From positions 23,867,648 through 23,931,647 of the forward strand of contig NC_092673.1 of the NCBI RefSeq assembly GCF_964355755.1: a DNA stretch of 64,000 nt, read 5' to 3'. The translations under genes and the position numbers were made by a program. Positions 24,201-59,691 of this stretch are shown one piece after another (position 1 is the stretch's first letter; each line of letters opens with the position of its first letter). Below the pieces are notes generated by a model. The model searched no databases, was not told the DNA's origin, and saw only the letters and a list, made by a program, of their open reading frames with translations. The DNA comes from Antedon mediterranea (taxonomy: Eukaryota > Animalia > Echinodermata).

Positions 24201-25525
24201 TGTTACACCCTACCCCAAAAAATGTATTTTTATTGCAATTTTTAAGAATAAAAAATGATAATTGGTGTATAATGAACTGCAATTTTAATCTTGTTAACAT
24301 ATATTTTCTTATTCAATATGTCAGTAAGCACAAGTAAAACACAATTAAGATAAAACATATTGAAAATTATAGATACTATGTTGAAATTTATCTATATTTT
24401 GGCAAAAATGTCTTTTTTTGTAAAAGGTCAATGACCTTTTGACCTCTACTGACCCTACTAATAGTCCGATTAATTTTTATTTAAATTTTATAAGATTTTA
24501 AAAGATGTATGCTACACAATGGTACCAAGATAATACTAATTAGGTGTTGGATTCTTGGGTTATTGGGATAATTGTTACCCCCTACCCCAAAAATGTCTTT
24601 TTATTGTAATTTTGAAGAATAACAAAATTACATGACAATTGGTATTAATGCAGTGCAATTTTTTTCATGTTAACACATATTTTGTTATTCAATATGTCAC
24701 TAAACACAAGTAAAACACAATTAAAATAAAAAATATTGAAAATTGGAGATTTGATATTGAAATGTATCTCATTATGGCAAATATTTGCAATTTTGCAAAA
24801 GGTCAGTGACCTTTTGACCTCTACTGACCTTAAAAATGGTTCGATTAATTTTATTCAAATTTTATATGATTAAAAAACATAAATGCTACACAACGACACC
24901 AAGATCATACTAATTAGATGTTTGATTCTTGGGTTATTGCTATTATTGTTACCCCCTACCCCAAAAAATGTATTTTTATTGCAATTTTTAACAATAAAAA
25001 ATAACAATTTGTATATAATGAACTGCAATTTTTATCTTGTTAACATATATTTTCTTATTCAATATGTCAGTAAGCACAAGTAAAACACAATTAAGATAAA
25101 AAATATTGAAAATTGTAGAAACGATATTGAAATTTATCTATATTTTGGGAAAAATTTGCATTTTGCAAAAGGTCAATGACCTTTTGACCTCTACTGACCT
25201 TAACAATCTTCCGATTAATTTTATTTAAATTTTAAAAGATTTTAAAAGATGTATGCTACACAATGTTACTAAGATAATACTAATTAGATGTTGGATTCTT
25301 GGGTTATTAGGATAAATGTTACCCCCTACCCCAAAAAATATTTGAAGATAAAACACTGATGATCATTACAAATGACGCAAGTACATACAATGCATCCCTA
25401 TATTTTTCTTGTTAACATCGATTTTTTTACTCTATATGTCCGTGGGAAGAAAATGATACCAAAGAAGTTTAACTGTGGGGTGGGGGGGGGGGGTGCACGG
25501 TAACCCCCCTCCAGCCCATGGACTA
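21218..25525. mobile_element. 4.3-kb palindromic fold-back DNA element made of ~373-bp tandem units (Academ-like ends)
   Basis: Termini TAGTCCATGGGCTGGAGGGG / CCCCTCCAGCCCATGGACTA flanked by TAT on both sides. The left arm has 7 units (GGGGTAGGG at ~21410, 21780, 22152, 22523, 22900, 23272, 23646). The right arm has 5 inverted units, with only ~100 bp unpaired at ~23692-23792. Confidence 0.9.
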
Positions 25526-35129: not shown

Positions 35130-38100
35130 TCAGCAAAATACTTTCTGCAATCTACATTTGAATCTATCAAGATCTGTATCTCATCTTTCAGTACTACGTC
35201 GAATTCCAGAGTCCAAAATGGGTTGATGGTCAATTTAAAGGGTGGGTATGATAAGATACGGTAAGCTCAGCGGTAACACATGCGGACACGTACACAGATC
35301 GTCATGGTAGTAAAGATGCGAGTTAATAGTGGTACCGTTAAAACTTGAGTCAGAACCCAACTTCTTCAGAAGGTGGATTCCAAATTGAGTCCCAGACACT
35401 TCCCTCCTTACATCTACGACTTCCACGATTAATGCTGCAAATAAATGCGATTGATTAATGCTGCAAATAAATGCGATTTCAAAGTAATATTTTTCTGTTA
35501 AATTAATCAAGTAAAGCATCTTTAATATCACGACAACATTCTCGTGCATTCAGTAATAATAATATAATTATTATTATATAAATACATTTTCTCTAAAGCG
35601 CTATGATCACAATTCTCGAACGGCTACGAAGAACCTACAAAAACATAGTGTGTTGGATGAGTTCAGTCTTGCAAAATGGGATATGTTTTCTTATTGATAG
35701 TCGTTAAAATTGGATTCAATAGAGCTAAAATTAATGAACAAATTCAACACACCTTCTAAATGTAAGCGACATGCAATAAGTAACGACATCACGGTCTCAC
35801 AGTTTCCACACATATCTAATAATAAAAGTGAACAATTATTCAAAATATACATTATTAGTTTTACATACCACCAGGAACATGGTACATTTCGGAAATTCAC
35901 AAAAGGACAACCGTCTGTTAGCCTCCATCGACAGGGGTAATGCATCAGGGAAGACAGGAGAATCTTTATTTATACCAGAGCTCAGAGTAGCCTAACATGG
36001 TCTGGTGGTAGAATATGAGTTGGAACTTTATCTCAGTTTTCTGCTATTAAAGTTAAGGTTAAATAAAAACGAAGCAACTACAATAATACAACAAAATAAT
36101 TGTTATAGTGAACAAAAAACTACTAATTTACCTGGACATGTTTTTATACATCGAGACTCCAGCGCCATAATTATTCAAATGACATACACTTACTCTCTTG
36201 CTGATCGTAGTAAAAACGAAGATAACTAAATGGTCCAAATCCACTGTCTACTGCTTGAGAACACGTTTCATCTATAATAAAAATAGATCTATGTATAAAT
36301 ATTGGTTGTCACTGTAGTGGTTTACTTGCAGTAGGCCTACATGTGATTGTAGAGAGAGAGTTAAAAAGGTAGTAAAACTAAATTGAAAGGTAGAGTTAGC
36401 TAAACCAGATGGAGCAAAAACAGAGGTAGCAAAACTACTGGCAGAAAAACCAGTGGCAAAAAAACTAGAGGCAGCAAAGCAAGATACAGCAAAACCAGTG
36501 GCAGAATAACCAGGGGCAGCAAAGAAAGATACAGGAACGCAAGAGAAAGCAAAATCAGTGGCAGAAAAGCTAGGGGCAGCAAAGCCAGAGGCAAGGAAAT
36601 CAAACTTAATGAAACCATCACCAAATGATGATCTAGGCCTACTTTTATTGGATGTTTGATTAAAATAAAGAGAGTTGAATATAGGTTGTACGTAGGTATA
36701 AACGATCAAATGAACACATCAGTGTTGAAGAACAAAGAACGCCTTTGATATTTACCGTAATCACCCATACACTGATCTTCGCATTCATCCACAGTTCTAA
36801 ATCCTTCATCAGATTGCATGCAAAACCCGTCTGCCACTTGTACGCATACCTTTATGTCCGATCTAAAGTAAATTTGGTTCACGCATTGCACATCGCTACG
36901 TACGGGATTTGCGTGGCATGATATACCTATACAGAGAAGATAAACAAACGTTTATTTATAATTATATGAAATAGTATTGTCATAAATTAAAAAAAACATG
37001 AGCATAAAGAGGCCGCACTGATTTGTAAATTTTTAAAAGATTTTAAGAATCAGCTTATGCCTAACAAATTGTTGCCAAAAATATCTTAATTCACTCAATG
37101 CAGTGGGGTAGAAGAAATATTCCTAGGCTTATTGTTTGCTTTTTGTTTTATCATTTGCACATTTCATAATATTATAATTTTCACACATTTTTTTATTGTA
37201 GTTATTTCAGAAAATTCATACTTTTGTGTCGATGCTTGTAACTATTAAATACCGGTACCGTGTGATCTTCAATTCTTCATAAAATGACAAGGTGTTATTA
37301 TAAATGAAGTTTATGAACACGGTTAAAAAATAGGAATACCATTTATGCATCTTCCATTGTGCATGACGTCAATTACTTTTTCTGTACTGCATGCTGTCAC
37401 TTTTAGTAAGCACTTATTTGAATAAGTCACTGCGTCACTTCCGCAAACTAGCTCTCCAATCAGTGGACAGTCGTCAGACGTTTTGGATATACACGTAGCT
37501 TCGCGTTGTCTTACCACGCATTTCTTGTCATCGGTGCATGTGTTATTAGCACATATATCTAAATAAACATCGGTTAGAAAAACATTCAAAATGTTATGAG
37601 TCACTTTCGCAAACTAGTTGGTGGGCAGTCTTGGTATTTTACTGTAGATAGATACGTGGCTACTTCAAGTTATCTTACCACGCACATCTGGTCACTGATG
37701 GGGATATAATTTAGTAGGCTACAGAAGAACCCATTCAGACGCGCTGTATTAAAGGGAAACTTTGTTGTGTCAGTGTCCTCTTAATATGGTTTCTACTGCA
37801 TCAAATATTTTGATAAACATCGGATAGATAGATAATTATAAGCAAACAGAATGTGGTTCAACAGACCTTCACATGTTGGTAACGATCCATTCCACATTCC
37901 ACTTTTTGCACATTCTAAGACAGATTCCCCGACCAGTTGGAAATCTGGTGCACAAGAGTATCTAAGTAAACCACCAATTAAATGTTCTCCTTCTATCTCA
38001 ACAGTGCCATTCCCGAACGCTTCAAACTTGTCACATCCAAGAACTATACAAGAAATGAAATCATTAAAGTATGCACCGTTCCTTGTGGATTGGCTATGAC

Positions 38101-41064
38101 ATTTTCAGTATCTTAGTGGACCATGTACATATTATATCGATACGAACATTGGTTAATAATAGGGGCCTAAGGAACGCAATATGGGAGTGGCGTCAGAACA
38201 CATTCTATCGCCCACTTACCAACGCAACTGCATTCTTCACCAGTCCATTCTCCATTAGGCAAGCAGTGACGTATTGCTGAACAATTGATGACATAATTCT
38301 CACCACACTCGCATGTTACTGTGGCACCCGCACGCCAATTACTGCCTTGTAGAAAGCCGTTAGAAGGTGGTTGGATAATAGAACACGGAACTGTACATAT
38401 AGAATAACATGCAATTCCAAAAATTAGAGAAACATAACCAAACAAAAATTGCAATACAAATCCATATATTGAAAACGTTTGCAAAACTTTGGTGGAGAAC
38501 AAAAAAAAAACAAATGTGATGTTGCAAAACAAGAAACATGCAGTTGCTACATTAAAGACTAAAGATTGCCATAAATTGAGAAATGTCATCAGAATAGTCA
38601 CGAGTACTTAACTGTTAACCTGGATGAACACAGATTTTGATATAATAGGCGATGCACATGTGTACCATCCCTGACTGCCACTTTGTATATTCAAGATCGC
38701 CAAGCGAAGGTACTGGCCATCTTCAATTATAAATTCATTAAATCCATCCATCACTCTAAAATTTAAAAAACGACACATGATTGAAACGATTGGATCAATG
38801 TTATCAATTGTTAGTTTATACTTTAATGGGCTGTATGCTGAAGAGTCAAGCCTTACACATGGAATTGAGGATGTCATCAAAAGATGAACAAGCAAGGTCA
38901 AGGAAAGAAAGTAGTGGAGAGTCACCACGGTTAAACGCGAGTATAGTGCCTGAATGTGAATGCTTCGCACGAAGCTCTTTAAAATCACTAATAGACGGGC
39001 CATCTTCTTGTAGAAGGAATTATAAATTACAATCAGGTACAGTGGAAAATACTGTTAATTGTTAATTGTGTTATTATTATTGTTTTTATGGTGCTGCAAT
39101 ATATTAAATCTAAGACAATCATAAGTGCACTAACCTTTGTAACATATGGGTGCTTCAGCCGTCCACTGTGCAGCGCCATTCAAGTACGTACAACGAATAA
39201 TACTTCGTCCACTTGGAATACGTACTGTTCCTGATTCACACGCGAACACAACGATTCTGCCAACGGTGAAATCATCACATTTTCGAAAGCCGTTTTCTGG
39301 AGTCCCAGGATCTTCACATGTTGCTTTAACATACACAAGATCACAATTACAATATTATAATATTTTGTCTCATTTATACATTCATTGTTTCTAAAGTGTG
39401 AAATTACAACAGAAATGGATCTCATACATCTTACTGTAGTTCAAATACTCGTCATTGAAACGGATCCTTTAAAAATCGTTTGGAATTAAATAATTCCTCT
39501 GAAGCAATGGTCATTCCAATGGTCATTCCAACGAAATTCAAACACATTTGAAACCAACAATTTTAAAGGGTAGCTTTTAAGTTTATAATAACTAAACGAC
39601 CGGGAAGTCACCAATCTCTCATTAATGTGAATGTGTGACATTTTCTTATTATTGTCGTTACAAAGGTATAATTAACAATATGAATTTTAAACCCGGAACT
39701 GCTGATTAAAGATACATCTATATCACTTACCAATAACTTGAATCTCGACTTTTCCTCTGTTCGAATCAAACGCTGAAAGACAAACATAAGTTCCCGCGTC
39801 TTCCTCCTTGATGTCCGTCAATTCCATTCGATATACATTAGCTATGAGAGATAGAAGATAGAAGGTACGTTAGTGGGTTGTCGATACAAGATCCTTATAA
39901 GCCTGGTTTCCTTAAAATGTCTAGTGCATGTGTGTGGACGATGTCTACACACATGCACTACATTAGAAGTATTTACAGTATATTATCTGGTTAGCTGAAT
40001 AATTCTGTAATGTATATTCAGCCTCGTATAATCCGGTAGTCTTCACTGGCATAGTCATATTAACATTCTATTTCCGATAAGCTGGTATAACATTTAACAA
40101 AAGTTTTTGCCAGGATGGTATGGTATGATCATTGATTTAACAATGTAACATTGGACAATTACCACCCTTAACGGGTATATTTCTTGATTTTGGATACTCA
40201 ATATTTTTTCAGACAAAAATCGAAATAAAAACAAATAAAAAAAAAAGACAATGAATACAGACTTGGGGCAAGTGTAACTTACCATGATAAATGCAACGCA
40301 TCCCGCACCGACCATCACAAAGACATTCGCCGTCGCCTGGACAGTACCCATCGCTTTCACACGAGATGAAGCAGACGTGATTATAGGCATAATATCGATC
40401 TCGTGTTTCACATTCTTAAATAATAATAACAAAATAATAATAACGGATGTCGTCAGTAATAGAAGATGTTGATATACAAACATGTTGCCTAGACTTTTTA
40501 TATAAAGCGTTATAGAAACAGACTTGATATTTCATCGATCGAAACTAGAGATAACATGTATTTCTACAGTATAACTCCTTTTAAGGGGACACTTTCTGGA
40601 CCCCACAAAGTAACCGCTTCATTAGGGGTTGGTCCTCGTTCTTTTTCAAGACAATCCTCAATTTCCAATATATAATTCCAGGGAACTTCCTTGATAATAC
40701 ATTGACGCCAGATTTATTTAAGATACATTAGGTCGTGTTTGATGAATTCCTGATCTTCTTTATCTTTTACTAGTGTTAGTTGTATGCATTTTTTAACTGA
40801 ATGAATATGATATAAGATGATAAAAGAACAACTCTACTATGTTTATGTTGACCATCTTGTGTATAATACGTTTGTCATGTGAACAGGTAATTACCACCTT
40901 TATGGAGTGAATGAATTATGGTTACCGTTGGCGATTTACTTAAATACTTACATATAACGAACATATTTACATTGTTGACAAATCACAGCTACCTTACCTA
41001 CTAATGAATCCCCATAGCACAGTTGCACTATAGCAATAAAAAACACAATCACTTTACACATCAT
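35130..41064 (-). pseudogene. Secreted mosaic protein gene, apparently decaying: SP-WAP-like-Ig-CCP-Ig-CCP-CCP-follistatin/Kazal-Kunitz-NTR-like
   Basis: Phase-1 domain exons: 41064-40998 (signal peptide MMCKVIVFFIAIVQLCYG), 40414-40283 (CESDGYCPGDGECLCDGRCGMRC), ~39841-39731 (Ig, DAGTYVC), 39323-39135 (CCP), ~39007-38605 (Ig pieces, GWYTC), 38390-38220 and 38043-37867 (CCP), 37558-37340 (FS/Kazal, VCGSDAVTYSNKC), 36926-36756 (Kunitz, FRTVDECEDQC) and ~35460-35130 (CTCP...YLI). In-frame stops or frame breaks occur at ~40715, ~38850, 35235 and ~35180. Confidence 0.7.
36400..36630 (+). repeat. Degenerate 15-bp repeat (reads as AKPVA/EKPEA-like pentapeptides on +)
   Basis: Periodic GCAAAACCAGTGGCAGAAAAACCAGAGGCA-like units with one in-frame TAA; explains the Leu-rich and Phe/Ala-rich minus-strand ORFs. 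Confidence 0.6.
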
Positions 41065-42494
41065 GTTAACAGCAAAACTAGCACAATAAAAGTGATATGT
41101 GTTTGAACTACAGCAACAGATATGTAAAGCACCTGCTCATTTGCATAAACACGTAGATACGATACTAGAGCTAGCGCCCTCTACACATATAAAATACACT
41201 CTCTAATCTGTTTTAAAAATGTATTGGATTTGATAAACAGAGAAACTTTGATTTTTTTTTTCGAACGACTTATAACAAAATATATAATAAATTAATAAAT
41301 CCAAAGGCAAAATATTGAAAAATGACAATGCTGTGGGTATCAGTGGCTGGATCTCAATGAAGATACAAAATAAAATAAGCAAAAAGCTAAATCAAGACAA
41401 TAAAGTAAAACTGCCAGAAAAAAATAGCCGAGATCAAATATTGAGACAATTTACAAAATGAATTATTTCTGAAACCTGATTTCATTTGTATTTGATGATG
41501 ATAACTTTAGTAACAGTGACCTTTTTATTATTCTGATATCAACTAGAACGAACCTGTATAATTTTAAATATTTTTTCTTATTATACACCGTACCGGTGAA
41601 GAGTCACATTTCTTAATTTAATACCGATAATTTGTTTTACTTAATGTCCCTACACCCCTTTCACATTCACTCAATCCGTCCTTGTTTTCCGTATCGTAAA
41701 CCATCAAACCGGCACGTGGAGACAAAGGTATTAACACGGAGGAAATAAATAAGAGATTTCCTCCACAGTACTATTAAAATAATTGTCAATACCCATAGGT
41801 TTTGTTAGATTTTATAACTAAAAGATGACAAAGTGTATTTTCTTGTGACGATGTTAACAGCCTGGGGCGCATCACTATTTATCATATCTCATCACTAGAT
41901 GAGGCATACGCTCGTCTCGTCGTCTATCTGTAGCATCTGTAGACCAAAAAAAGAAATCCTAAAATAATAAGTCGACACATTTAATTTCCGGAAATTGACA
42001 TCAAGATTAAACATAAAACAAGACAACTATTTTAAAATGTTTAAAACTAGATGTATTACAACTGTCCAATTTCCATGTTTGCATCTCCATTTCCTTCGAC
42101 ATTCTACTAGGGTCTATTTAATTAGACGTTCCATTAAAACAACTAAAAGGCGGCGTTTCGATAATAGCTGTCTTAAGATGTGCTAAATTGCTTAGTAATT
42201 TAGAAAATTACTTAGTGCATGGTTTTTGAAATTTATGCCCGAAATTTATCTAAAATTTGATGAGATAATGATTAGATTACCGGACTGAATTGAAAATGTC
42301 TTGCTTCAGATTGTGCATTTCAAGGCATCAGAAAATTGCAAAAACGTCATTCGATGTTTCAATTTGGTAACTTGAAATAGTTGAATAAATTATCTTTATA
42401 ATAGGCCTAGTTCATCGATGATTATATTGTTTACTGTCATTTATATTAATAATAAAGATGCTCCGTTGCTTATGTGGGTTATTCATTTCACTAA

Positions 42495-42898
42495 AAATAT
42501 CGTCATTGTCACCATTATCAACAACACAAACATTGCCATTATCACCATCAACAAAAACATCGTCATTGTCCCCATTATCATCACCATTAACGTCGTCATT
42601 GTCACCATCAACAAAAACATCGTCATTATCATGAATAAAAGCATCGTCATTGTCACCGTCAACAAAAACATCGTCATTGTCACCATCAACAAAAACATCG
42701 TTATTATCATCAACAAAAGCATCGTCATTGTCACCATCAACAAAAACATCGTCATTGTCATCATCAACAAAAACATCGTGATTATCACCATCAATAAAAA
42801 CATCGTCATTATCACCATCAACAAAAACATCGTCATTATCACCATCAACAAAAACATCGTCATTACCACCATCAACACAAACATCGTCATTGTCACAA
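42495..42898. repeat. 27-bp (and 21-bp variant) minisatellite AACATCGTCATTGTCACCATCAACAAA
   Basis: About 15 tandem copies; source of the NIVIVTINK and MTMFLLMV ORFs. Confidence 0.92.
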
Positions 42899-45175
42899 AC
42901 TTCCTCATTGGCTTTGAATTTAAAGTTTTGAATTGTTGTATCTTGTGTAGCCTATAGTAACCTTTTATTTTTAAATCTCAGTAGGCCTTTTTAATTGTCA
43001 CATAAAAACATTAAGTGTAACCACACGCATAACATAAACAAAGCTACAAAGAAAAACATGGCTTTACACATCTAATGTAGTATAATATCCATAAAATACC
43101 ATCAATAGAATATATTATCTTAAATATCACTACTAGATTGCGAAGGCGGTATTCATTAAATACCTAATCTCTCATGATTTCGACTGCCCACTCTGAATGA
43201 AAATTCAATAAATGTCACGAGAATCTCTAAAAAGGTCTCATTCATTCATGTTAACATTAGATGCGACAAAAGTATGTTTGTCATTGGCCTAAAATGTGTA
43301 GGCCTATTATACGTAAGGTTAAGCCAACGAAGAAAACAAGATTTCAAGCCCCTCGAATGCCTTTCACATCGCCTGGCAAAACTTGGGAGTTTACACACAC
43401 CAGCACCAGTACCGGCGTTGCAAATAATTACTTTTAAATATCAAATATGAAACGACAACATTAGAATCCATAGAATTGTATAGAATATATAATTCCTGGT
43501 GATGTTATTGATACAAATATATTGAATCTCGTCACGTTACCTGGTACAGTAGGTTCGTACGACAAACTTAGTAATGGCCATTCGTTACGATGCCTCGAAA
43601 CGCCAGGAACACCATATAGTTCAATGTTGAAATATATAGGCCTACTCTTGAAAGAGGAAAATCTCAGCGTTATGTCTCGAACGGCAAAACCCCATCCTTA
43701 GTAGTTTGTTAGGACAGTAAACTCGATATCCGAAATCTTCTATAAAACCTTTGCCAAACATTATTATTAAGTCACAACGATCCTTGTGAAAATTACTGGT
43801 TACTTTACATAATTATGTAGGCTTTGTAGGCCCTTTAGTACCAAATCTCTTATAAACGGTTATGGAACAGTGCGTTTACTTAATAAAGGTATCTCATCAA
43901 ATCAAAGATAAAGTACTATTTAAGAGATTTAATTGGTCGAACAAAGTATAAAGGGCGCAGATAACTCGTCATCATTCAATGGTGAAATGATAAAGAAATG
44001 TTTGCTTGGGATTCCAAGCATTCGACACTTTGGGAATTCCATAAATGATAAGGCATTGTAATTGTACTAATTGTACTATTATTATTATTGTATTATTATT
44101 TCGTCACCACAGTTGCATAGTTATGTTAGTTACATCAAGGGGTAAGTGTAATTGATCTATCTATTCCTGTTCATAAACTGCACACCATTATATGAATAAG
44201 TACAAAATAAATAACAAATATAGGCCAATAAAGAAACGGTTAAAGTTTGGTTGACCACAAAATGGCTCTTTTTATAAAATTTGATTGAATTTGTTAGATT
44301 ATAATAGTGAACAATTAGTATGAATAATAAAGTAATATGGTTATGACGGCATTTATCTGATCAGATTTTAAAAAGTAGAACAAGTCAGAGTCGGTCGTTC
44401 TCGATTTGATATCGGTTGCTGTCGGCCAATCTTTGTTGACTGTCGGTTATTGTCGGAAGAGTACGAGCGATTGACAGAGATCTCTTAACATCATAAGATT
44501 CATTCATCTTATGGGCCAAACCTTGAAAAACATGGAATCATCGTGACGCACAACATAATGCATGTGCATTTATTATGTGTATTTATAGTCTGAAAACGTT
44601 TACAACACGATAACTCCACATAGGCCTAGTTAAATAACGGGATATTTATTTAACTTCATAACTTAAATAATATAAAAAAAATTGCAATAAATATATTAAA
44701 TTTATAATTTTCAAAAGATGGAAGATTGTCTAAATGCATTATATACATTATATAAATACTTTATTAAATATTAAATATATATTATAGTTGTTAAATAAAA
44801 TTTCAAAACATTCATTATATTGCTTCACTAAGTTTAAATATTACATTGTGAAATATAGATATTTATAAAATTGATATAAGTATCTAAAATAAATAATATA
44901 TAATAAATAACTAATTAACTTTCTCATGTTTTCTCTCTTCAAATACTTAAATTAATATTTTTTGTGGTTTATAAAACCAAACATTGTTGTTTTTAATGCC
45001 AGAATGCATTGTACTCCTAAAGTTTACGTATATAGGCCTATTACATATTTTTACTTTTATAATGCTATAAATAATGTTCACATACTTTTTAGCGAATATC
45101 GCATACTTATAAAACGTAATTATCTTAAATAGCCATTACCGGCTACGAGTTTTTATCCATACAAAATATAGAAAG

Positions 45176-48100
45176 TTATTGCAGTTGACTATGATTAGAG
45201 GTATTGTAAATATGTCTGAGAACACTTTGCATCCATGTCAAATAATGTTGCATTCCTACAATGACACGCTTTACTCCAGCAGTAGCCGAATGGCAGGATG
45301 ATATGTCTATTTGCACTCCTTTGGTTTCGTTATCAGAGTCTTCTTGAATGTTGTGGTCTTTCATCTGTAATAAAAGAACACAAACATTTAAAATAGAAAA
45401 AAAATAAGGAAATACAATAAGGCGGTATCATGTCTAGTGACACCAAACACAATGCAGTATTGCGTCTTATGACAACAACCCTCATTCCTCTCACTATAAT
45501 ATTAAACAAGTTACCGTACTTACCAACAGTTTGAAACGGTGTAGTAGAACTGTTGTATAATCGGACAGTTCTTCCAGCTTTGTTTTATACTCGTCACTGA
45601 TGTTAACGTTTGAGGTAATGTTGTTTAAAAAGTTCAGGTAAACTTGCAAATCTTGTATGTGTTTGTTGGCAAGAAATTTTTCCTAAATATACAAAAGTTA
45701 ATATTTTTATTTATCATTAAAAAAACTTCACATATGTTAACTTGATCTATTTATCTATTTTTAAATAATTAGGCCTATACATTAGATCTTTAATTAGAAT
45801 CACCACATTTTAATTAAAGAAATATATAATAATACAATATAGATTTTCATGAGAGTATTAACTCGTTAACTTACCGATGAGAAATGTGTTTCCAATCGTG
45901 TGAGTCTGTTTGGAATTCCATTAACATGATGACACCTGATTACTTTATTTTTTTCCTATAAATTAAATTCAAAATAAAGGTTAGTCACGTCTGAAGGTGA
46001 ATATACAGTTGTACAATACTCTGTGTAAAGTAGTAACAAGTTTATAGCTCTGAGAATCAGACAATGAGAAGTAAGAATGGCAGGCAGCATAAATGGTTAT
46101 CTTAGTTTTTTGAATGAATAAGCTTTACTTATTATACTGTTTTCTGTTCGTTAATGTCCATGGAATAAACGGCCCCTTTGGCTTACAAATTCATATATAA
46201 TGCCTGGTTTGCGATGTGAAAGCAGTAAGCAAAACTTATATGTTCAGAAAAATCGGATATAAATGTATTCAGCCCCAATGGAGTGAGATTACACCACCGT
46301 AAATTAAAAAGACACAGATTTTGCTTGCCGTGTATTTTGTGCAAAGTTCTGTCTACAGTGTGATGTGCCCAAATATGTTACTGCCATGCAAATTTCTTCT
46401 AATAAAAATACTAATTGCATAACTTACCAATATCTGTTCAAAGTTGTTCAGTCGATGTTTAAGATGCTTAGCTTCATTTTTTACCGCTGTTGTGGTAGAA
46501 TGCGTCTGGCTGTATGCTGTTGTTGCAATAATACTTATGACAAGAAGTGTACGCAATCCTAAAATAAAAAAGAAATATATATATAAATATAAATATTCGA
46601 ATTTAACTTTTGCCGTTTGTAAAAGAAATAGTTTAACATGCACAATTAAAAAATTACAAGAACTTTTCTGTGTACGACAATACATCGTTGGGGGAGAAGG
46701 AGAATACCGAATATACCTGTCATAATAATATACGAGATTTGGTTAACGATTTCGATTATCGTTCGCCAGATAGATACGTGAATAAATAATTTGAACTTTA
46801 TGGTGTAAATTAAGAAACAACATATACATATTATTCGCTCATAATGAAAATGGCTAGAAAAAACAATAACATCCCGTCTAACTGAAGCGTCGTACTAAAT
46901 TTCTTTTACATTGCTCTCGTGGCTAAAGCTCTGTCTACACTACCTAAACTTTAAAAAAATGTGCATGATGATGATGGTGATATCACTTCCATATTTGGGA
47001 ATATTACTACCATATTTGGGTACATCACACTTTTCTTGTCAAACTAGTTTGATAGTGTAGACAGAGCTTAACACCAGAAGGACAGCACAATGGTAGAATT
47101 CAATACAGAAGAGAAAAAAACAAAATTCGGCGAAGCATCCACATGCAACCATAAGTTCGGGAAAACAACAGCAACTGTGATTTTCAATTTAGGCCTATTA
47201 CTAATCGGACTGTCTAATATGCAACCCAAAAAATAGAAACATAACCAGATAGGGTATCAGCAATAAAACAAGAAATGCCTACGAAAATAATGATACATAT
47301 TAAGAATATTAGTTAATATCAAATTAATGCTACGCACTATGTGCTAAACCTGTATAAATATAATATGAAGGGGAAAAGTAAATGCGAGACAGCGGCTAAG
47401 GAGAAAACAAAGTAGGGTCCAAGTTAAAATCATAAATATTATCTCAGTCGTACATACCAGCGGTTTTCATCTTTCCTGTAGATTTGTTCACGTATAATTT
47501 AAATTGGTCTTTCCTTATAGGATTCAGTTCAGTAATAAATGTTAACTAAAAGCCATAGCTTATATAGATATGTAAAGTGTAGGCCTAACTTTAGGTGAAA
47601 ATAGATTTCATATTTTGTAAAATAAATTTTCGTTAGATAAAATTTTCGAAACTTTTTTTTCAAATATCTCCAAACCAGGACTAACTATTGCGAAATAGTT
47701 GAGCGGAACCCCTTTGTTGTATGTCATTGTACCAAGTTATTTTTAGTGAATTACTATTCAATGAACCATATTACTATTGTGTTTGTTTACAAATTACAAA
47801 GATCTAAGATCTGATAAGAATATCGATCAAATATGTAACAGAGGAATACATCAGGTCAGCTACATCTATCGTAACCCACTATATTTTAATGAGGGTGATC
47901 CATCCAGCAATTGCTGATCATTAGGGACCCTCAGAGGTTCACAAGATGCATATACACATGATGCTCGACATAAACAAAGTCTTATTACAAGTCTTTGGGA
48001 GTGGAGTTGTAATTTTGTCCTTAGAAAAAATCCTGACATGTGACGGGACTTGAACCCAGGACCCTTGGAGTGGTAGCCAAGCATCATAACCACCAAGCCA

Positions 48101-48911
48101 CAACTCCACCATCGTAGTGAAGTGTATTGACAAAATGGAACACTGTATTGAACTGTTTTAAATGGACGCTAGGTTTATTCGGGAAAATTTAATACCATTA
48201 AGAGAACGAAAATCTAAGTAAGGTATGCAGCATTGTTCAACACTCGACCTCATCTTCTCTAATATATTGTTAAAAAAGTTGATGTTCTAATCTTAATCTG
48301 TGACACATAAATAAGGCATTGCTAAGTATGGTGTTAATGTTGAACATTTGAAAGAAACAAAATTTAAGTTGGATTTTATATTATTTTGATAATAATCTTA
48401 ATATCTTTATTTTTTTAATGTATTTTTAACGTACGTAGACATTTTTTTTGCCAGAAAAGTATAATAGTTAAATAGGCTATACCAAAATAGTTTTTAAATA
48501 ATATTTTAAAAAGGCATTTCTAGCCTTAGATAGGTTATGTTTCCTAAAAAGATGTAAACCTAATAACTGACAAGAATATTGCACAATAGGTAGACCTAAA
48601 ATAATTGGGCTTATAATTATTTTAAAAAAAATACAATTCTTCAGTAAAGAATCAGTTTCGCAGTATAAATTCTGATAAAAAACTGTCTTTACAATCGTGA
48701 ATGTTTCAGATTTTAACGTATTTTAGTATGTCTATAAATGTATCTATACATTAACTTTTGAAATTATAGACATAGTATTTTCCTCTCATTACCGGAGCTG
48801 AAGTTGGTCACTTAATTTACAGCATGTATATATTAATTTACATTGCAAATATACAATAGTATATTACTAAAATCATAACTCTTTTTAGTTGTACTTACCC
48901 ATATATTTCAT
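45176..48911 (-). CDS. Secreted four-helix-bundle cytokine-like protein A (~190 aa, 5 exons)
   Basis: Exons 48911-48899 (MKYM; alternative 47470-47458 MKTA), 46558-46428 (signal peptide + helix A ...AVKNEAKHLKHRLNNFEQIL), 45955-45875 (EKNKVIRCHHVNGIP...), 45682-45524 (EKFLANKHIQDLQVYLNFL...KLEELSDYTTVLLHRFKLL) and 45364-45176 (...CHSATAGVKRVIVGMQHYLTWMQSVLRHIY...). Canonical splice sites, phases 1-0-0-0, no internal stops. Confidence 0.8.
47550..47825 (-). promoter_or_regulatory. Diverged third copy of the cytokine-like promoter upstream of alternative exon 1 (47470-47458)
   Basis: Homologous to 49000-49260 and 52895-53170. Contains TATATAA (~47560-47566 on minus), ATTGCGAAAT (47687-47696) and GGAACCCC (47705-47712). 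Confidence 0.55.
47865..48107 (-). mobile_element. tRNA-derived SINE
   Basis: Minus-strand head GGAGTTGTGGCTTGGTGGTTATGATGC...GGGTTCAAGTCCC (A and B boxes) followed by a ~170-bp unrelated body. Confidence 0.65.
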
Positions 48912-48999
48912 ATTGATCGACAGAGATTCTTCCAAGTTCTGACTTTAATTGAGGCTTTACGGCAAATAAATGTTCTACTGCCATTATGGCTCCTTTCTT

Positions 49000-49260
49000 G
49001 ATATAGGCTACGCTTTCAAAATTCGAAAAATAGAATTATTTATTTTGCAAAATAAGTTTCGTTCGATAAAATTTCTGAAACTTTTTCAAAACAAACTTTG
49101 CAAGCGCTGAGCTAAACATTGCGCAATAGTTTACAGTAAATCCCTTGTTATGAGTCATTGTATTCATCCCTTGAAATGTATTTTTAGTAACTAGTGAATT
49201 ACTATTTATTCAACCATATCATCTGTGTGTGTTTGTTTAAAAATCAGACAGATCTAGAAT
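49000..49260 (-). promoter_or_regulatory. Promoter of cytokine-like gene A with C/EBP, NF-kB-like and AP-1 motifs
   Basis: TATA-like CTATATCA (~49000-49006), perfect C/EBP palindrome ATTGCGCAAT (49118-49127), GGGATTTAC on minus (49136-49144), TGAGTCA (49151-49157). Confidence 0.6.
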
Positions 49261-49272
49261 AAGTACAAAATA

Positions 49273-49927
49273 AACTAGAAAGCCACTCCGAGAGTGCATA
49301 CCTCCGCCCACTGTAAAATGTTCGTACATAAGATTTCTCCAGAAAAAAAGAAAATATATATCTTTGTGTGTATCTTAATGCTGTGTGTGATTTAGGCTAA
49401 TTTTACTACAAGCATGTGTATTCGAGTTTGGTGTAAAGGTTATGTAACAAGCTCAACTAATAATAGTTTCAGTTGACTAACAATAGAACAGCAACGCGAA
49501 AATCAAACGGATGAATTTGAAAAGAAATAGGTTTTGTAAACTACTCGTTTAAAAAAACACCTGTACATTAAATCAAATTATGTTTTAAAATTACAAATTA
49601 CTAATTTTAACTCTTGCTTCTTGTACAAAACTGTTTTGGACAAGTAGTTATTAAAAAATGCAATTAAAGTATACATGTTACCGCTCGCCGGCTTTTGAAA
49701 ATTCTGTCCTATACTTTAACACTAGCAGGTCTGTAAATGATATTAAAAAGTGGTCCAAAATTAGGACCGTGGTTCGGATTGCCTCCAAAATGTAATGGTG
49801 TGGTTCACATATCTATCTGTATTTTCATTTTGGTAAAGATATTGGAATAACTTGTTGAGTAATCCTGCTAACAAGCAAACAAATAGACACACGCGATCGA
49901 CTACATATACCTCCTTGGCGGAGGTAA
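49273..49927 (-). mobile_element. Helentron-associated (HINE-like) insertion
   Basis: On minus it starts TTACCTCCGCCAAGGAGGT and ends GGCGGAGGTATGCACTCTCGGAGTGGCTTTCTAGTT. It is absent from the paralogous site at ~44200-44225. Confidence 0.75.
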
Positions 49928-50855
49928 ATATCAAGTATAGGCCAATAAAGAAATGAAAGTTTCGTTGACCACAAAATGGCTCTTTTTGTATTGCATTTCT
50001 CGATTATAATAGTGAACCTTAGTACAAATAGTAAAGTAATATGGTTATGACGGCTTTTATCTTCTCTTCAGATTTCAAAAAGTAGTAAAAAGTAAGTCAG
50101 AGAGGGGTTGTGCTTTCGGTTGTTCTCGATTTGTTATCGGTTGCTACCGGCCGATTTTTGGTTTGCTTTACAGGTGATTGACAGAAATCTCTTCAGATCA
50201 TAAGAGATTCGTCTATCTTATGAGCCAAATCTTGAGAAGCATGGAATTCTCGCGACGCAGGGCATCAGATTATGCATGTGTATTTATTATGTGTATTGGT
50301 AGTCTGAAAACGTTTAGGCCTACAACACGATAATAACCACATAGTTAATAAATAACGTTTATTATTTATTTAACTTCATAACTTAAATAATATATAAAAA
50401 TTGCAATAAATATATTGGATTAATAATTTTTAAAAGATAGAAGATTGTCCAAATACATTAGATACATTATATAAATACTTTATTTATTCATTATGTTGCT
50501 TTACTAAGTTTAAATATTACAATGTGAAATATAGATATTTATAAAATTGATACAAGTATCTAAAAGAAATAATATATAATAACTAACTACTTAACTTGTT
50601 TTCTCTCTTCAAATAAAAAACAGTACTTAAATTAATATTTTTTGTGGTTTATAAAACCAAACATTGTTGTTTTTAATGCTAGAATGCATTGTACTCCTAA
50701 AGTTTACGTATATAGGCCTATTACATATTTTTACTTTTATAATGCTATAAATAATGTTCACATACTTTTTAGCGAATATCGCATACTTATACAACGTAAT
50801 TATCTTAAATAGCCATTACCGGCTACGAGTTTTTATCCATACAAAATATAGAAAG

Positions 50856-52811
50856 TTATTGCAGTTGACTAGAGGTATTGTGAATATGTCTGAGAACACT
50901 TTGCATCCATGTCAAATAATGTTGCATTCCTACAATGACACGCTTTACTCCAGCAGTAGCCGAATGGCAGGATGATATGTCTATTTGCACTCCTTTGGTT
51001 TCGTTATCAGAGTCTTCTTGAATGTTGTGGTCTTTCATCTGTAATAAAAGAACACAAACATTTAAAATAGGAAAAAATAACGAAGTACAATAAGGCGGTA
51101 TCATGAGCGGTATCATGTCTAGTGACAACAAAAAACATGCAGTATTGCGTCTTCTGACGACAACCCTCATTCCATGGAATACTGTACAGCCTCTCACTAC
51201 AATATTAAATAAGTCACCGTACTTACCAACAGTTTGAAACGGTGTAGTAGAACTGTTGTATAATCGGACAGTTCTTCCAGCTTTGTTTTATACTCGTCAC
51301 TGATGTTAACGTTTGAGGTAATGTTGTTTAAGAAGTTCAGGTAAACTTGCAAATCTTGTATGTGTTTGTTGGCACGAAATGTTTCCTAAATATACAAAAG
51401 TTAATATTATTATTTATCATTATGTAAACGTTACGTGTTTTAACTTTATCTATTTTAAAATAATTATAGGCCTAAATTAGATCTTTAATTAGAACCCCAT
51501 TTTGATTAGAGAAATATATAATAATATAAAATAGATTTTCATGAGAGTTTTAGCTCGTTAACTTACCTTTGTTTCCAATAGTGTGAGTCTGTTTGGAATT
51601 CCATTAACATGATGACACCTGATGCCTTTACTTTGTTCCTATAAATTAAATTCAAAATAACGGTTAGTCACGTCGGAAGGGGAATAAACAGTTGTACAAT
51701 ATTGTAGTAACAAGTTTATAGCTCTAAGAAGCAGACAATGAGAAATGAGAATGCAAGGCAGCATAAATGGTTATCCTAGTTTTATGAATAAACTTTCCTA
51801 CTTATTATTCTGTTTTCTGTTCGTTGTTGTCCACAGAATAAACAGGCCTTTTGTCATGTGCCCAAATTTGGTTAATATTATTAATATATGGGCACATCAG
51901 GGTTTTTTTGTCACATAAACTTTGATAGTGTAGACAAAGGTTTAAGCTTGGTTCCCACTAGAACGTAACGCAAGGACGTAAACGCAACGCAAGCGTTTTA
52001 ACCAATGACAAGCGAAATTATAGACAGTTAGCAATCACAAGCGAATAAGCCATCGCTTGTGATTGGTCAATTCACTTGCGTTGCGTTACGTCCTTGTATT
52101 GCGTCGCTAGTGGGAACCACGCTTTAGACGCTTGATCTCTTTTGTAAATGGTTATAATCTATAATTTCCTCTAATCAAAATACTAATAGAACTTACTAAT
52201 ATCTGTTCAAAGTTGTTCAGTCGATGTTTAAGATGCTTAGCTTCATTTTTTACCGCTGCTGTGGTAGTATTCGTCTGGCTGTATGCTGTTGTTGCAATAA
52301 TACTTATGACAAGAAGTGTATGTAATCCTACAATAAAAAAGGAAAAGGTAAATAAGTAAACAATTGGAATTAAACTTTTGCCGTTTGTAAAAGAAAAAGT
52401 TTAACATGCACAATTAAACAGTTTTAAACATGCTCGTGTGTACGACACTACATCGTTGATGGAGAATGAGAATACTGAAATGGCCTACCTTTCATAATTT
52501 ATAAATGCATTTTTGTTTATTAGTATTTTTTAAATTTTGATTTGTGGGAAAAAATCTATCATTACTTGTATTACATTTATGGTATACTGTATAACTGAAA
52601 TAGGATCGCCTCTCGCAGGAGATTAGGTTAAAGATTTCTATGGAACATTAATAAGGCATTGTTAAGTATGTTATATAATGTTGAACACTTGAATGCAAGA
52701 AAATTTAGGTAAAAACTTGCTTTACTTACATTATTAGTTTACATTGCACATATATAATAGTAGGCTATACTACTAAAACTCGTTTTAGCTGTACTTACTT
52801 ATATATTCCAT
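50856..52811 (-). CDS. Secreted four-helix-bundle cytokine-like protein B (recent tandem duplicate of A, ~185 aa, 5 exons)
   Basis: Exons 52811-52799 (MEYI), 52327-52197, 51638-51567, 51385-51227 and 51038-50856. Phases 1-0-0-0, open frame, near-identical to gene A except in exon 3 and the start of exon 4. Confidence 0.8.
51944..52105. mobile_element. Palindromic MITE family (GCTTGGTTCCCACTAG...CTAGTGGGAACC), Harbinger-like; further copies or fragments at ~29758-30858, 57656, 58023-58170, 58553, 60205-60345, 60745-60850 and 61604-61930
   Basis: Nearly fully palindromic ~160-bp element with recurring ACGCAACGCAAG...GACCAAT cores. Confidence 0.75.
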
Positions 52812-52894
52812 ATTGATCGACAGAGATTCTTTCAAGTTCTGACTTCAACTTAAGCTTTGCAGAAAATAAATGTTCTACTGCCATTGTGGCTCCT

Positions 52895-53170
52895 TAATAT
52901 AGGCTATACGCTTTCAAATTTCGAAAAAATAAATATATGTATTTTGCAAAATAAGTTTTCGTTCGATAAATTTTCTGAAACTTTTTTTTAAAACAAACTT
53001 TGCAAAGCGCTGAGCTAAACATTGCACAATAGTTGACAGTAAATCCCTTGTTTTGAGTCATTGTATTCATCCCTTGAAATGTATTTTTAGTAACTAGTGA
53101 ATTACTATTTATTCAACCATATCATCTGTGTGTGTTTGTTTGTTTAAAAATCAGATAGATCTAGAATCTG
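52895..53170 (-). promoter_or_regulatory. Promoter of cytokine-like gene B with C/EBP, NF-kB-like and AP-1 motifs
   Basis: TATA-like CTATATTA (~52895-52902), ATTGCACAAT (53021-53030), GGGATTTAC on minus (53039-53047), TGAGTCA (53054-53060). Confidence 0.6.
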
Positions 53171-56100
53171 ATAGGACTAATGTACAGGGTACTGGTATCA
53201 ATGCATGGTCTTTCATTATTTATAAAATGCAATAATTCTTTTCTCAGATATTTAGACAATGTATACATGAATTTCATAGTTTGCGGATATCGTATATTTA
53301 TGTATGATTATTTATAGTTAATTTAATACCAATACCAGGCTACTTCGAAGCAAAAGTTTAGTTACATTCTAGTAGAAGTGTGAGCATGAGTTCTACAACC
53401 GCTTTTACATTCCTTCTGGTCCCGGTGAATATATAAAAGGAAACTAAATCTAACAAGAACACCCCAATCCTACGAGAGGAGCACACAAGCCTCTACCAAT
53501 AATTGGAAAGTTAAACATTGTATATTTGTTTTGTTCTTTAAATGTTTTAACCAAAATATTTGTCCAGGATTACACAATCAGGTAAAGAAAAAAAAGTTTT
53601 ACATTGTGGTCCTGTCTAAATTCAAAATATATTAAGAAAAAAAAAGTTTCAGTTTCATGAAAAGAAATGAGATCTAGCTTTAAATGAACCAATTGTTGGC
53701 AAAAAGTACCAGGTACCAGGTATTAAAAGTTAGGCCGTAGACCTACATCTTGAAAAACTGGTTTGCTGAGATTTTGAAAAACTCAGCAGTGTATCAAATG
53801 CAGTAGAAATGGACACAAATGCAGCCTTCAGTGGGGCTAACAGGAGGAAAGAGAATTAAATTTATAAGTATAGTAAATGAAAAGTATTCATATCTTTCCA
53901 ATACAACACAGCAGTGTTTCACATTTATACTTAATTTCCATATTTTCTGACAACATACATGAACGTTTCCAAAATATGACATAACTCCGTTCGGTGGTGT
54001 ATGCTAGTGTTTACTAGTGTTTGTAACAAAGGTGGGTTTTCCAAAATAGATTTCCAAATTACGGACTTGACATTTTAGGCTTGCGACCCACTTTATTGTA
54101 CGTCACTACATACCATTATTTCCGAAAGTGAAAGAAAAATAAGAAAACAAACAACCGAAACCAGATTATCAATACTATTTACAGTTCAATTGTTATCCAT
54201 TCATGTATTATTATCTACTATTAATCTACAGCACAGTAAAGTCTTGATAAGATAATGGCATATACATGGCTGCAGTCGCGTGCTCAAGTTAGTGTTTTCC
54301 GACCAACCGACCGACCAACTGACCGACATAGTGAGCTCTAGAGTCGCGTTGCACGCGAATAAAAAGAATTATAGTTGCGGCGGTTACAACATAAAGTTAC
54401 TAAATTGAGGAAAATCGGAATTTATAGCACACATCGCATGTATCGGGTGCTCAGTAGAGCTGAAGTATTCGAGTCAGAATTGGTGACCAAACAGTGTCTG
54501 ATAACTGAAGAAATGACTATCGAGGTTGGCTGACAGATTAAAGAATAGATTGATTCACTCTAAAGAATGGATTTATTGATTGATAAAGTACAATCTGGAT
54601 TATTAATAAACATTCACACTATTACCCATTTCAAGTCGTGCAAAAGTGCACAGCTTCGAAGATTTGCAACGTATTGCGGAATATAGAATGAATATAAAAA
54701 TTGTTTGAAAAGTTTACATTTCTCTCAATTTAAAGTAGGTACTTGGTATACAAATATTGACAAACAACACCATTTATACCTAAAATAATATATTGTATAT
54801 ATATATTCACTTTGACCAAAAATTGGATCGACAAAAAAAATAGTTACCTGAAAAATTTTACAGCAAAAAATAGTCAAATTGTCTGTTAGACAATGGGGGT
54901 CTGGTTAAATGTAACAGTTTATTGTGTCTTTAAAGTAAAGTAAAAAAAATGTCTGATTTAGTTTTTTTTAATGAGTTTGGGAAACAATAATAAAAGCAAT
55001 CAAGAACAATTATTTTAATTGTTTGTACAATCTCTTGAAAACAGTTTCTGGAAATAAACGTCACCTTGGATTGCTAAATTCAGAACATTCTTTTACTAAA
55101 TTTAGACAAACAATTATCCATAATTATTATAAAATATTTAATATAAAACATTTTCTGAGAGTAATTCAGCACTAAAATATATTTAAACTCATTAAAATAA
55201 GTAATGATACACTATAACGAATAACCATTATATTATTAAATAACATATTCTATCACACATGTACTTTATTGATTCGGCGCGCGGGTATATGTATTTAAAA
55301 TGTATGACCTTACATAGAATAAGATGCTTCTTTTACTTTCTAAGTTACTAAAACTCAATTCTAAGATTGATCCGTGATCAACATTTGGCGTCTGCAAGAA
55401 AGAGTTTGTGAAAGGGAAACAACACGACGCATGAATGTTCTGGGGGTGGGGACGATTTCAGAGAGTTTATAACCACAACTACAGTATGAATGGTAGATGG
55501 TGATACAGATATGTATTTATATATAATAGTATCGGTATTCTTTCTCAGTTTCAAATGATATAAACGAATAATAAACAAACACAAGACTGAAGAAATTGAA
55601 GAAGTCATCCATAATGCCAATAATGTGTGTTTAAGATATTTTTTTAAACTATGCAATCCTTTACACTGAATGCTATATTATTTTATGTTGGTGTTTATTT
55701 ATCTCCAATTCAAGTGGTTCTTCAATAATAGATTGTTGTATCAATTATGTTGATAAGTAAACATTCAAGTTAAATAGTATTTTGTATCCTGCAATGAACG
55801 GGGCGCGTTGACAAAACGGTACAGTACTGTAGGTGACACAGACAAGCAGACAATTACAAAGAAGGGATAGACGCAAATATGATAAACAATTATATTTATT
55901 TATTTATGACGCAATAAACACTATAATTTTACAATAGTACAGTTAAACTTAATTAAAATGTCTGCATTGTGAACTCTTACTTATTTTAATGATTATTAGT
56001 ACATACTGTAATAATATATAACATTCTATTTGAAATCTAAAATATTTAGTTACATGTTTTTGTTATATTAGTTGAAACATTTTTGTAATATAATATTTAC

Positions 56101-56579
56101 TTAATATGAATCTTTCAAGTTTATAATTGACCGATTGAATCCAAGCGGTAGGATGAGACTCTTTAAACCCAAAAACAAATAGATTCGTTAACTCGATCCT
56201 TTGTTCCCTTCATTATTATCCAGCAAAACCGCAAGTAGGTAGATAATTCCTATGATTATTTAGTACTGTATACTGTTATAATATATAACATTCTAATATT
56301 TAAAAATCTAAAATATTTAGATACATGTTTTGTCATCAATTGACTAGTTTTTATAATACATAATATTTTCTTCTAAATGCATCGATTCTTATATTTCAAA
56401 ATCGCTAATTTTGAATTACCCTGTTTAAAACACCGTTTTTCTAACATCCGCTATAACCAATAACATTAGTAAATATATGTAATACTGTATTAAAATGACT
56501 ATTATATAATAATAAAATATGTGTAATCACAGATTACAAACATGTTAAGTTAGAGACGTTCCAGCAAGCTGAGGCAATT

Positions 56580-59500
56580 CTATGGTTTTACATGACGTAA
56601 GTAATCCTCAAACCAGACCGTGTAAGGGACCATCCTTTCAGCAACGTACAGCACGCTGCAGATTGTCTGTGTTTGGTTGGCAGCAGAATCGATTACCGTT
56701 TGTGAGGAAGAGTCATTCTGGTATCCATTTTCTGAAAACTAAAAAATGATACTAATATTTATGCACCGTCACAAAAAAACAAAAACATTTTACCGATACA
56801 GATTTTCTGCTTTTTAAAATAAATTATTTATACTCTTTTAGATATTAATAAAGTTATGATTACTGATTATAATATGTGAGAACTACTTTCTCGCACCACT
56901 TGTATCGTGAGACAGTATTCTTCAGCCAATATTGACAGGTCTTTTCATAATCATGTAATTAAAAATCAGCTTTTCATGTTTGTAAATTTGTTTGAGCAAT
57001 TTATTAATTTATTTATTTCTCTTGTAGAGATTAATAAGGTTTTAATGATTATAATATCCGATAACTACTTTCTCGCACCACTTGTAGTATAGAAAGTATT
57101 CTTCCGCCAATATGGTAGTATAAAGGTATAAATAATATAATAACATGATTTGTTACATTATTTTCTAGTTGTTCCGCTTCCCATAACACAATTAAATCAT
57201 GAATGGCTTACTATATCAGATATCCTAGATAATACAACTAGAACCTGGTTCCGAAGTTGTCGCAGCATGTTCTTTAAGTTGTCTGCAATTTGGAAAGTTG
57301 TCTGGTTTTCAATTCGTCCAAGATAATCTTCATATGCCGTAAAACTACGTCTGTGATAGTTCATTACAACCTAGAGATCATTAAGCAGAAATACCATACA
57401 AGCTTCTTATGAGTTTTTAATGTTCTAGTAGATTAATACTTGGATTATATGTCCGGTAGTGATTGATCATTTCTATATAGCCATTAACGACTGAAGGAAT
57501 TAATTCCCATTAATTATGTAAATCATTTGCATATTGCTAATCAGGCGGTTTTTGAAAAAAAATTTGGGGGGGGGGGGGGAGGGTGGGTTGGTACGGGCAT
57601 GGTAAGATGCATATTATCTTAGGGGTTAGGAATATCAGATGGTGCAGAGGCAAAAGCTTGGTTTCCACTATAGGACGCAGTGCAATTTGATTATCCGAAC
57701 TGTCGCTTGTCGTTGGTCAACTCGGCTTCGAAAAAGTTGGTGCCTTTGTATTTCAGCGTACGTATTTTTCGGCTGTACATACGACAGAGATGCATTCACT
57801 TAAACTGCATGTTACATTTGACTTTGTTACAATACAACATTATAAGTCTACTGATGTAAAAGCCAAATCAAAATACAGTGTAACTTATATATATATCAGT
57901 TTCAATTTAAAAAAAAAGATTAGTGCCAGAAATTGATTGTAAGTAGTTTATAAGCAAAAAAGGCAACTATAATTATTATGTTAAAGTAATATTTTAAAGA
58001 TCTAGGCACGTCACAACTACTCAAGCTTGCTTCCCAGCTAGGGCGCAGTGCAAGGACGTAAGCGCAACGCAAGTTGAGGGATGGATTATTCGATATGTCG
58101 CTTGCCATTGGCAAAATCGCTGGCGTTGCGTTTACGTCCTTGAGTTGTGTCCTAGTATGATCCAAGCTTAATAAGGACAAACTACTTAATAACTGGATTT
58201 TATATTAGTCTTCAGCTGCGATACTATATCTAACATATTATACAAAATAATAATTAATATAACTTAGTATGGTGATCATCAACATATACTCGGCAATTAT
58301 TATCACCGTCATTATAACAATTATTCTTCATAATATACTACTGGACATATTTCATTGACGTAATATCGTAATAACACACTGCTTTAGGGGCTAGTTGAAG
58401 TTATATTAATACAACTGTAATGTTCAATGTAATTTAATAACTTAACTTTGCATAATTACCAAAACATGTAGTATTTTCGTAATCAGCCCAGGATTAGGTT
58501 CACCTAATATTTAGGTGCTGAACGTCTAACGTGTGCAATGATAAAGAGAAAAGCGTTTGGTTTCCACTAGGACTCAACGTAACGAAGCGTACCAACTTGA
58601 CCAATCAAAAGTGTCACTTGCTAGAACTTATTATGTATTAAATAACTTCATTTACCCAATGATAGGGTTAGGTTCAGTATGAACATGAAACAGTCTCGCA
58701 GTTGATCGACACAGTACGAGATGGAAACAAAACATTATCTGTAGGGCAAATATAATATGTAGGCCTATTACCGAATTTACATTCAATGACATGTGTTTCT
58801 TACCTCTTGATCAAGAAAAAAGAATAAAGTACTACTCTTTATTCTCGGAACTCCAGACACCGGCGGTGCTCCTAAGGCATTTCTGCTACAATTGTTTGTC
58901 TGTGGATATGCGATAAATGTTTGTTTGTGATACAGTATTATTCTTATCAACGATTCGTTGAGCAAGTTAGTTATACAATTGACAGGTTTAACTGTATATA
59001 ATGTACATAATAAAAACGTATATTTGTATTAATCAATTGGCTAGATACAACACGTCTTTCTAAAACGAGGTGAATGCAATAAAACACGATCTCAATAGTC
59101 GTTCATTATTCGCTGAATGCGGTTAAACATAATCGTCATTTTATAAATGATGGTATTTTTATACAATAGTTATAAAAACCCTAAACCGCTGTATTATGTA
59201 TAGTTCCAAAAAATCGTATTAATCATGGTAGTCTACTTACAAGATGTGTTGTAAAGTTATTAAGTTGACTTCTCAGGTATATTGAGTGATTTTCAGCATC
59301 GTCGTACACATTGGTCGCTCGCACTGTCAAGTTCATTCCAACTAATACGAGTACCACCAGTGCGAGGTTTATTGCTTTGTAACAAACAGGTTAAAATTAA
59401 GCTTTATTTTTGTTGTCCAAATCAAACGATTTGTAAAAAAATAATTTATATTAGGAACATGTTCGAGAAGGAGCTCCTTTTCGACAAACGACTCAAAAGT

Positions 59501-59691
59501 AAATGCAATTGACAAATTTGTGATTAGGGAGAAATATAACCGATATTATATTGTTTTAATATTTAGGTAAAAAAGTATTAGTAAAGTACTAGAAAAACCT
59601 AATTAATAGAATAGATTTCACCGGCGGATTTATCGTTGCTAGACATACAACCGTGTACTGGGCGTTTTTACTTACCATAGTTTGGCTTCAT
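56580..59691 (-). CDS. Secreted four-helix-bundle cytokine-like protein C (divergent paralog, ~187 aa, 5 exons)
   Basis: Exons 59691-59676 (MKPNY), 59374-59241 (AINLALVVLVLVGMNLTVRA-TNVYDDAENHSIYLRSQLNNFTTHL), 58899-58804 (TNNCSRNALGAPPVSGVPRI...), 57370-57212 (VVMNYHRRSFTAYEDYLGRI...LKNMLRQLRNQVLVVLSRISDI) and 56738-56580 (...ICSVLYVAERMVPYTVWFEDYLRHVKP*). Phases 1-0-0-0, exon 4 is 159 nt as in A and B, and TATATAA lies ~100 bp upstream of the ATG. Confidence 0.8.

Follow-up and report, generated by a model that had tools for sequence, protein, structure and literature searches.

A window of 64,000 nucleotides (nt) of the Antedon mediterranea genome (contig NC_092673.1, positions 23,867,648 to 23,931,647) harbours, on the minus strand of its positions 45176–59691, three tandem five-exon gene models (A, B and C), which we consider, with a probability of roughly 60 %, to encode ligands that resemble long-chain class I helical cytokines and act on a gp130/Domeless-type receptor. 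This reading is based on the gene layout and on structures predicted piece by piece. The initial annotation had proposed three same-strand genes with a tiny first exon and intron phases 1-0-0-0, and joining the exons in the DNA sequence confirmed this, with all frames open: the models are stop-free, predict proteins of 190 (A), 185 (B) and 187 (C) amino acids (aa) and share the phases 1-0-0-0, a first exon of 13–16 nt and a fourth exon of 159 nt throughout (Table 1). All 12 donors read GTAAG, a word found at 68 of the 3630 GT dinucleotides on the minus strand of the window, donor selection having been partly steered by this very word. A scan of both strands for the layout returned exactly these three chains and none in each of 40 shuffles, at thresholds which were fixed only once the genes had been seen.

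Gene C leaves some room for variation. Its exon 5 acceptor may lie in frame at 56738, as in the model, or at 56717, with an out-of-frame competitor at 56731 (seen at the DNA level only), no other candidate for its exon 3 passed the filters in the interval from exon 2 to exon 4, and space for an additional upstream exon is left by an acceptor-like site 10 nt ahead of the ATG. Contigs of two DNA runs are near letter-identical to the gene C region, but possibly derive from the source sample and are not independent support. In other assemblies, none of the 12 listed indels (of 28 in total) falls inside an exon. Genes A, B and C are thus real as DNA-level models with predicted splice junctions, and the collections searched suggest that they are unannotated, with no near-identical record for exon 5 of gene A.

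The predicted proteins carry a single hydrophobic segment at residues 9–19 (KD11 2.4–3.2), in line with the signal peptide proposed initially, and no later hydrophobic segment (19-residue maximum ≤1.0), so that all three are probably secreted, as judged from their sequences. The several NxS/T sites claimed per chain were also found, i.e. five in A, five in B and seven in C, one of the latter within the signal region. The motifs L-x3-LNNF (helix A), V-x-G-[IV]-P (AB loop) and M-x2-Y-x2-W-x4-LRH (helix D), described as shared features, occur in all three proteins; since A and B are near-identical duplicates, this sharing rests on one independent comparison. Each protein has two Cys residues, one each from exons 3 and 5, which are 93–108 residues apart. 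A Cys in the AB loop and another at helix D had been put forward as a further shared feature, of which the pair itself holds for all three proteins and the positions do not: the first Cys stands three residues before V-x-G-[IV]-P in A and B and ten before it in C, and the second 20 residues before the Trp in A and B and 15 before it in C.

The ‘three divergent paralogs’ of the initial annotation are better described as two divergent types. The mature chains of A and B are identical at 153 of 164 residues (93 %), and their nucleotides at 539 of 558 exon positions and 663 of 790 positions of introns 2–4. Their codons differ by 15 non-synonymous and three synonymous changes, 14 of the former lying within residues 2–79. 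The two chains thus diverge largely at the N-terminus and along the AB loop, and all four proposed helices are left unchanged. Mature A and C, in contrast, share 40 of 147 residues (27 %), with an alignment score of 132 against a best of 58 in 1000 shuffles (z 17.6). The exons of A each score highest against the same-numbered exon of C (z 3.9, 1.8, 5.3 and 7.0; all 12 off-diagonal pairs ≤1.7), and the identity is concentrated in proposed helices A and D. On these comparisons, A and B arose by recent tandem duplication and C represents an old paralog. Exons 4 and 5 of A (45176–45682) and B (50856–51385) are 98–99 % identical with few synonymous changes, and the adjoining introns 90–92 % identical; gene conversion between the two genes at these exons is possible.

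Structure was predicted for single exons only, i.e. exon 4 alone and exon 5 alone, the exon 4 model being built from the gene C sequence with gene A exon 4 as second alignment row. Exon 4 of gene C is predicted to fold into a hairpin of helix 2–23, a six-residue loop and helix 30–52 (22/6/23 residues), with a predicted local distance difference test score (pLDDT) of 81. Of the original claim of a 159-nt exon 4 with two amphipathic helices, the size stands for all three genes and the two-helix fold, as predicted, for C; helix C of gene A gives no clear amphipathic signal. Using segment limits drawn by eye, the hydrophobic moment peaks at 100–105 degrees in six of the eight proposed helices and in none of the AB segments, which are non-amphipathic and 27–32 aa long; amphipathicity reaches p < 0.05 against shuffles in four of the eight.

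Taken together, these data would fit a design in which exon 2 encodes helix A, ending at the exon 2/3 border, exon 3 a non-helical AB loop of 27–32 residues, exon 4 the B–C hairpin with its six-residue turn, and exon 5 a polar CD connector followed by helix D. The order of long, short and long loops, a requirement of the up-up-down-down bundle, would give these proteins that topology. The starts of the AB loop and of helix D would then lie at the same bundle end, where both paralogs place a Cys despite the shift, and a single disulfide would join them; an up-down-up-down bundle also permits such a pair, which is therefore not decisive for the topology. By analogy with class I cytokines, the ligand would cluster gp130/Domeless-type receptor chains and thereby activate JAK-STAT signalling, most likely in an immune or repair role, and the differences between A and B in the N-terminus and AB loop could tune receptor specificity. 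An IL6R-like receptor is reported in sea urchin and acorn worm (PMC13203501). The 700 nt downstream of gene A (44476..45175, minus strand) are AU-rich, with 15 ATTTA words against 6.2 in shuffles, and possibly represent mRNA instability elements, as weak support for an immune-type transcript; no such enrichment was found behind B or C (one of three genes only), nor was an NF-kB site found upstream.

Several results of structure prediction, homology search and family comparison weigh against a cytokine identity. Exon 5 of gene C, folded alone, gave one helix of 42 residues after eight non-helical leading residues, with no long CD loop seen. A clear amphipathic signal is missing in helix C of A (p 0.19) and helix A of C (p 0.27), a Pro lies inside the proposed helix D of C, and the Cys residues of A/B and C are unaligned. 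None of eight single-exon peptides matched Pfam at E ≤1, the exon peptides matched no PDB sequence, homolog searches with them found no relative, and a full HMMER scan against 1.84 billion representatives matched nothing but a spurious bacterial repeat protein; the ESM Atlas and a metagenome scan likewise returned blank or spurious results. All these queries were single exons of 27–62 residues, which have low power. The layout alone is weak evidence, given that a screen of lamprey for a cytokine-type phase pattern yielded 132 genes, of which 14 were small and secreted and only one of these helical (10.64898/2026.05.30.728932). An older statement holds that the sea urchin lacks an apparent cytokine receptor system (PMC3296744). 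Of the class I reading proposed initially, the gene models, secretion signal, exon-to-helix layout and invertebrate deuterostome host stand; the single-exon queries matched no known cytokine family by sequence or profile.

Comparison with named families gives a similarly mixed picture. The phases 1-0-0-0 are also those of IL-6, IL-11, G-CSF and GH, and the exon sizes of A–C are presumably near those of IL-11. The proposed resemblance of the last helix to IL-11 helix D would fit A and B better than C, in which their Gly and Leu are not kept. In OSM and LIF, a disulfide runs between the AB loop and the start of helix D, and the Cys positions of A–C fit this; LIF and OSM have three coding exons, as opposed to five here. 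Drosophila Unpaired 1–3 are likewise invertebrate ligands of the four-helix JAK/STAT type, acting on Domeless, but are longer precursors with another gene layout and no sequence match to A–C. In IL-6 and IL-11, the site III Trp stands at the start of helix D. This Trp (PMC7378365) is unmatched, since the sole Trp of A–C lies late in proposed helix D. The claim of a vertebrate IL-6-type five-exon layout agrees in exon/intron placement with a lamprey study, in which IL-6 has a single signal-region intron plus three that interrupt the mature domain and was sought among proteins of 150–280 aa with a signal peptide (PMC13081863); all of A–C have five exons so placed, 185–190 aa and a signal peptide. 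Thus, IL-6, IL-11 and G-CSF resemble A–C in exon number, intron placement, size, signal peptide and the long helices with a short BC turn predicted here. The signature C-x9-C-x6-G-L-x2-[FY]-x3-L given for IL-6/G-CSF/MGF (PMC3271213) is found in none of the three proteins, and none of the named IL-6 neighbours, such as TOMM7 (PMC13081863), is among the neighbours in the window. LIF, OSM, CT-1 and M17 are similar in being N-glycosylated long-chain bundles, as predicted here, but differ in that A–C have only two Cys, and the mark of that group, FxxK at the helix D N-terminus (PMC9601804), occurs in none of the three proteins. GH and PRL have four conserved Cys in two disulfides, whereas A–C have two Cys, no C-terminal disulfide loop and no sequence match to them; the four-Cys pattern is also absent from amphioxus GH-like (PMC9546618). 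The latter (GHl, 208 aa) is the published precedent in an invertebrate deuterostome, none having been detected in acorn worms or sea squirts (PMC9010856). Since the motif tests for the named families failed, A–C are placed under none of them; judged by sequence, they may act like long-chain class I cytokines, but belong to no single vertebrate family by motif.

The proteins might instead be lineage-specific secreted helical glycoproteins unrelated to cytokines, i.e. lipid-binding, defence, adhesive or gamete-recognition proteins, with a coincidental 1-0-0-0 pattern. We regard this as unlikely: missing sequence matches are typical of cytokines across phyla (PMC13081863), and the size, helix lengths (20–27 residues) and two-helix exon 4 are all where a long-chain cytokine has them, as are the long Pro/Gly-containing loop in an exon of its own and the Cys pair at the starts of this loop and of the last helix. 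It is improbable that the genes encode a helical cytokine of another class, either class II (interferon/IL-10-like) or an M-CSF/SCF-like four-helix ligand of receptor tyrosine kinases. SCF and M-CSF carry a transmembrane segment, which A–C lack. Interferons have been reported in lancelets and share with A–C a signal peptide, a length of about 190 aa and the division into five exons, and an interferon-lambda complex appeared at rank 24 of a structure search with the exon 4 hairpin, tied with unrelated rows in an otherwise uninformative result; the interferon layout is 0-0-0-0 with five helices, as opposed to the four long helices predicted here and a first intron that follows a tiny exon in phase 1, and the same source records no interferon-fold secreted protein in sea urchin proteomes (10.64898/2026.05.30.728932).

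It is very improbable that the genes are silent or decaying, or that their splice models are wrong. The excess of non-synonymous over synonymous codon differences between A and B is by itself no sign of purifying selection, and the competing acceptors at gene C exon 5 and the predicted status of the junctions also speak for this explanation. Against it stand the open frames of all 15 exons with their consensus donors, the preservation of frame, phases and the 159-nt exon between A and C at 27 % identity, the higher identity of A/B exons than introns, and the lack of listed exonic indels in other assemblies. Long-chain class I cytokine-like ligands remain our preferred reading of A–C.

Table 1. 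Exons of the three candidate cytokine genes (positions within the window)
Feature	Positions	Strand	Remarks
Gene A exon 1	48899..48911	-	ATG, 13 nt, phase 1; matches the place of exon 1 in B, in a block of 88 % identity
Gene A exon 2	46428..46558	-	131 nt; signal peptide and predicted helix A ending LNNF
Gene A exon 3	45875..45955	-	81 nt; predicted AB loop, Cys56, V-x-G-I-P
Gene A exon 4	45524..45682	-	159 nt; predicted helices B and C; second row of folded alignment
Gene A exon 5	45176..45364	-	189 nt to stop; predicted CD loop, Cys152, helix D
Gene B exon 1	52799..52811	-	13 nt
Gene B exon 2	52197..52327	-	131 nt
Gene B exon 3	51567..51638	-	72 nt; three codons fewer than A
Gene B exon 4	51227..51385	-	159 nt
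Gene B exon 5	50856..51038	-	183 nt to stop
Gene C exon 1	59676..59691	-	16 nt, phase 1; further upstream exon possible
Gene C exon 2	59241..59374	-	134 nt; signal peptide and predicted helix A
Gene C exon 3	58804..58899	-	96 nt; Pro/Gly-rich predicted AB loop, Cys54
Gene C exon 4	57212..57370	-	159 nt; predicted helix(22)-loop(6)-helix(23)
Gene C exon 5	56580..56738	-	159 nt to stop; alternative acceptors; Cys162, helix D

The window has a GC content of about 31 %. The introns of A, B and C contain high-copy short elements (47030–47075, 51900–52125 and 57650–58160, respectively) with very high depth and many loose ends, the one in gene B including an inverted repeat (51944–52124); these are likely insertions of the miniature inverted-repeat transposable element (MITE) type. 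Intron 4 of gene C also carries a 114-nt direct duplication (56820–57113, 82 % identity). Directly downstream of gene A, one or more multi-exon genes (36272–43700, minus strand) encode several Sushi domains and a Kazal domain according to Pfam and, by eye, an Ig-like exon, a WAP-like Cys-rich exon and an Asp-rich repeat exon (42412–42951). A family 29 sialyltransferase exon (27824–28384, minus strand; PF00777) is alpha-2,8-sialyltransferase-like; its seven matches at E ≤1e-20 are all from crinoids, i.e. six from A. mediterranea (44–54 % identity) and one from Anneissia japonica (41 %), and the six Antedon relatives suggest an expanded crinoid sialyltransferase cluster. Exons of a class I/II aminotransferase (PF00155) lie at 7500–12500 (minus strand) and, by eye, resemble kynurenine aminotransferase. 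The aminotransferase, sialyltransferase and Sushi/Kazal exons are all on the same strand as the cytokine candidates and downstream of their cluster. A satellite of ~370 nt occupies 21402–25339 in two adjacent, apparently mutually inverted arrays of 6.4 and 4.1 copies.

Our literature search, which mainly covered freely readable papers, turned up insect Unpaired and amphioxus GH-like as published class I ligands of invertebrates, but no class I helical cytokine gene from an echinoderm. IL-6-like activity was reportedly obtained from a sea star in work of 1996 (cited in PMC9465101). According to recent surveys, IL-6-family ligands are found only in vertebrates, while IL6R/gp130-like receptors, JAK and STAT extend to invertebrates including echinoderms (PMC13203501, PMC12284397), and leptin and IL-6-family cytokines have not been identified outside jawed vertebrates (PMC12284397). 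A gp130-like receptor has been reported in sea squirt (PMC1963337), a 2026 sea cucumber review mentions neither IL-6 nor JAK (PMC13673367), and a structure-guided route succeeded for IL-1 in echinoderms (PMC13736523). There is about an even chance that A–C represent the first class I helical cytokines of echinoderms at the gene level, keeping the exon layout of vertebrate IL-6, IL-11 and GH, and the missing ligands for the gp130/IL6R-like receptor. If the fold fails, an unannotated secreted-protein family of modest interest remains. If the reading is true, an IL-6/IL-11/GH-type ligand gene would predate the split between chordates and ambulacrarians, and searching by exon layout would be a way to uncover hidden cytokines in the genomes of invertebrates. 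With concrete crinoid genes, one can directly test how this ligand class originated and what signal acts upstream of echinoderm JAK-STAT in immunity and regeneration.
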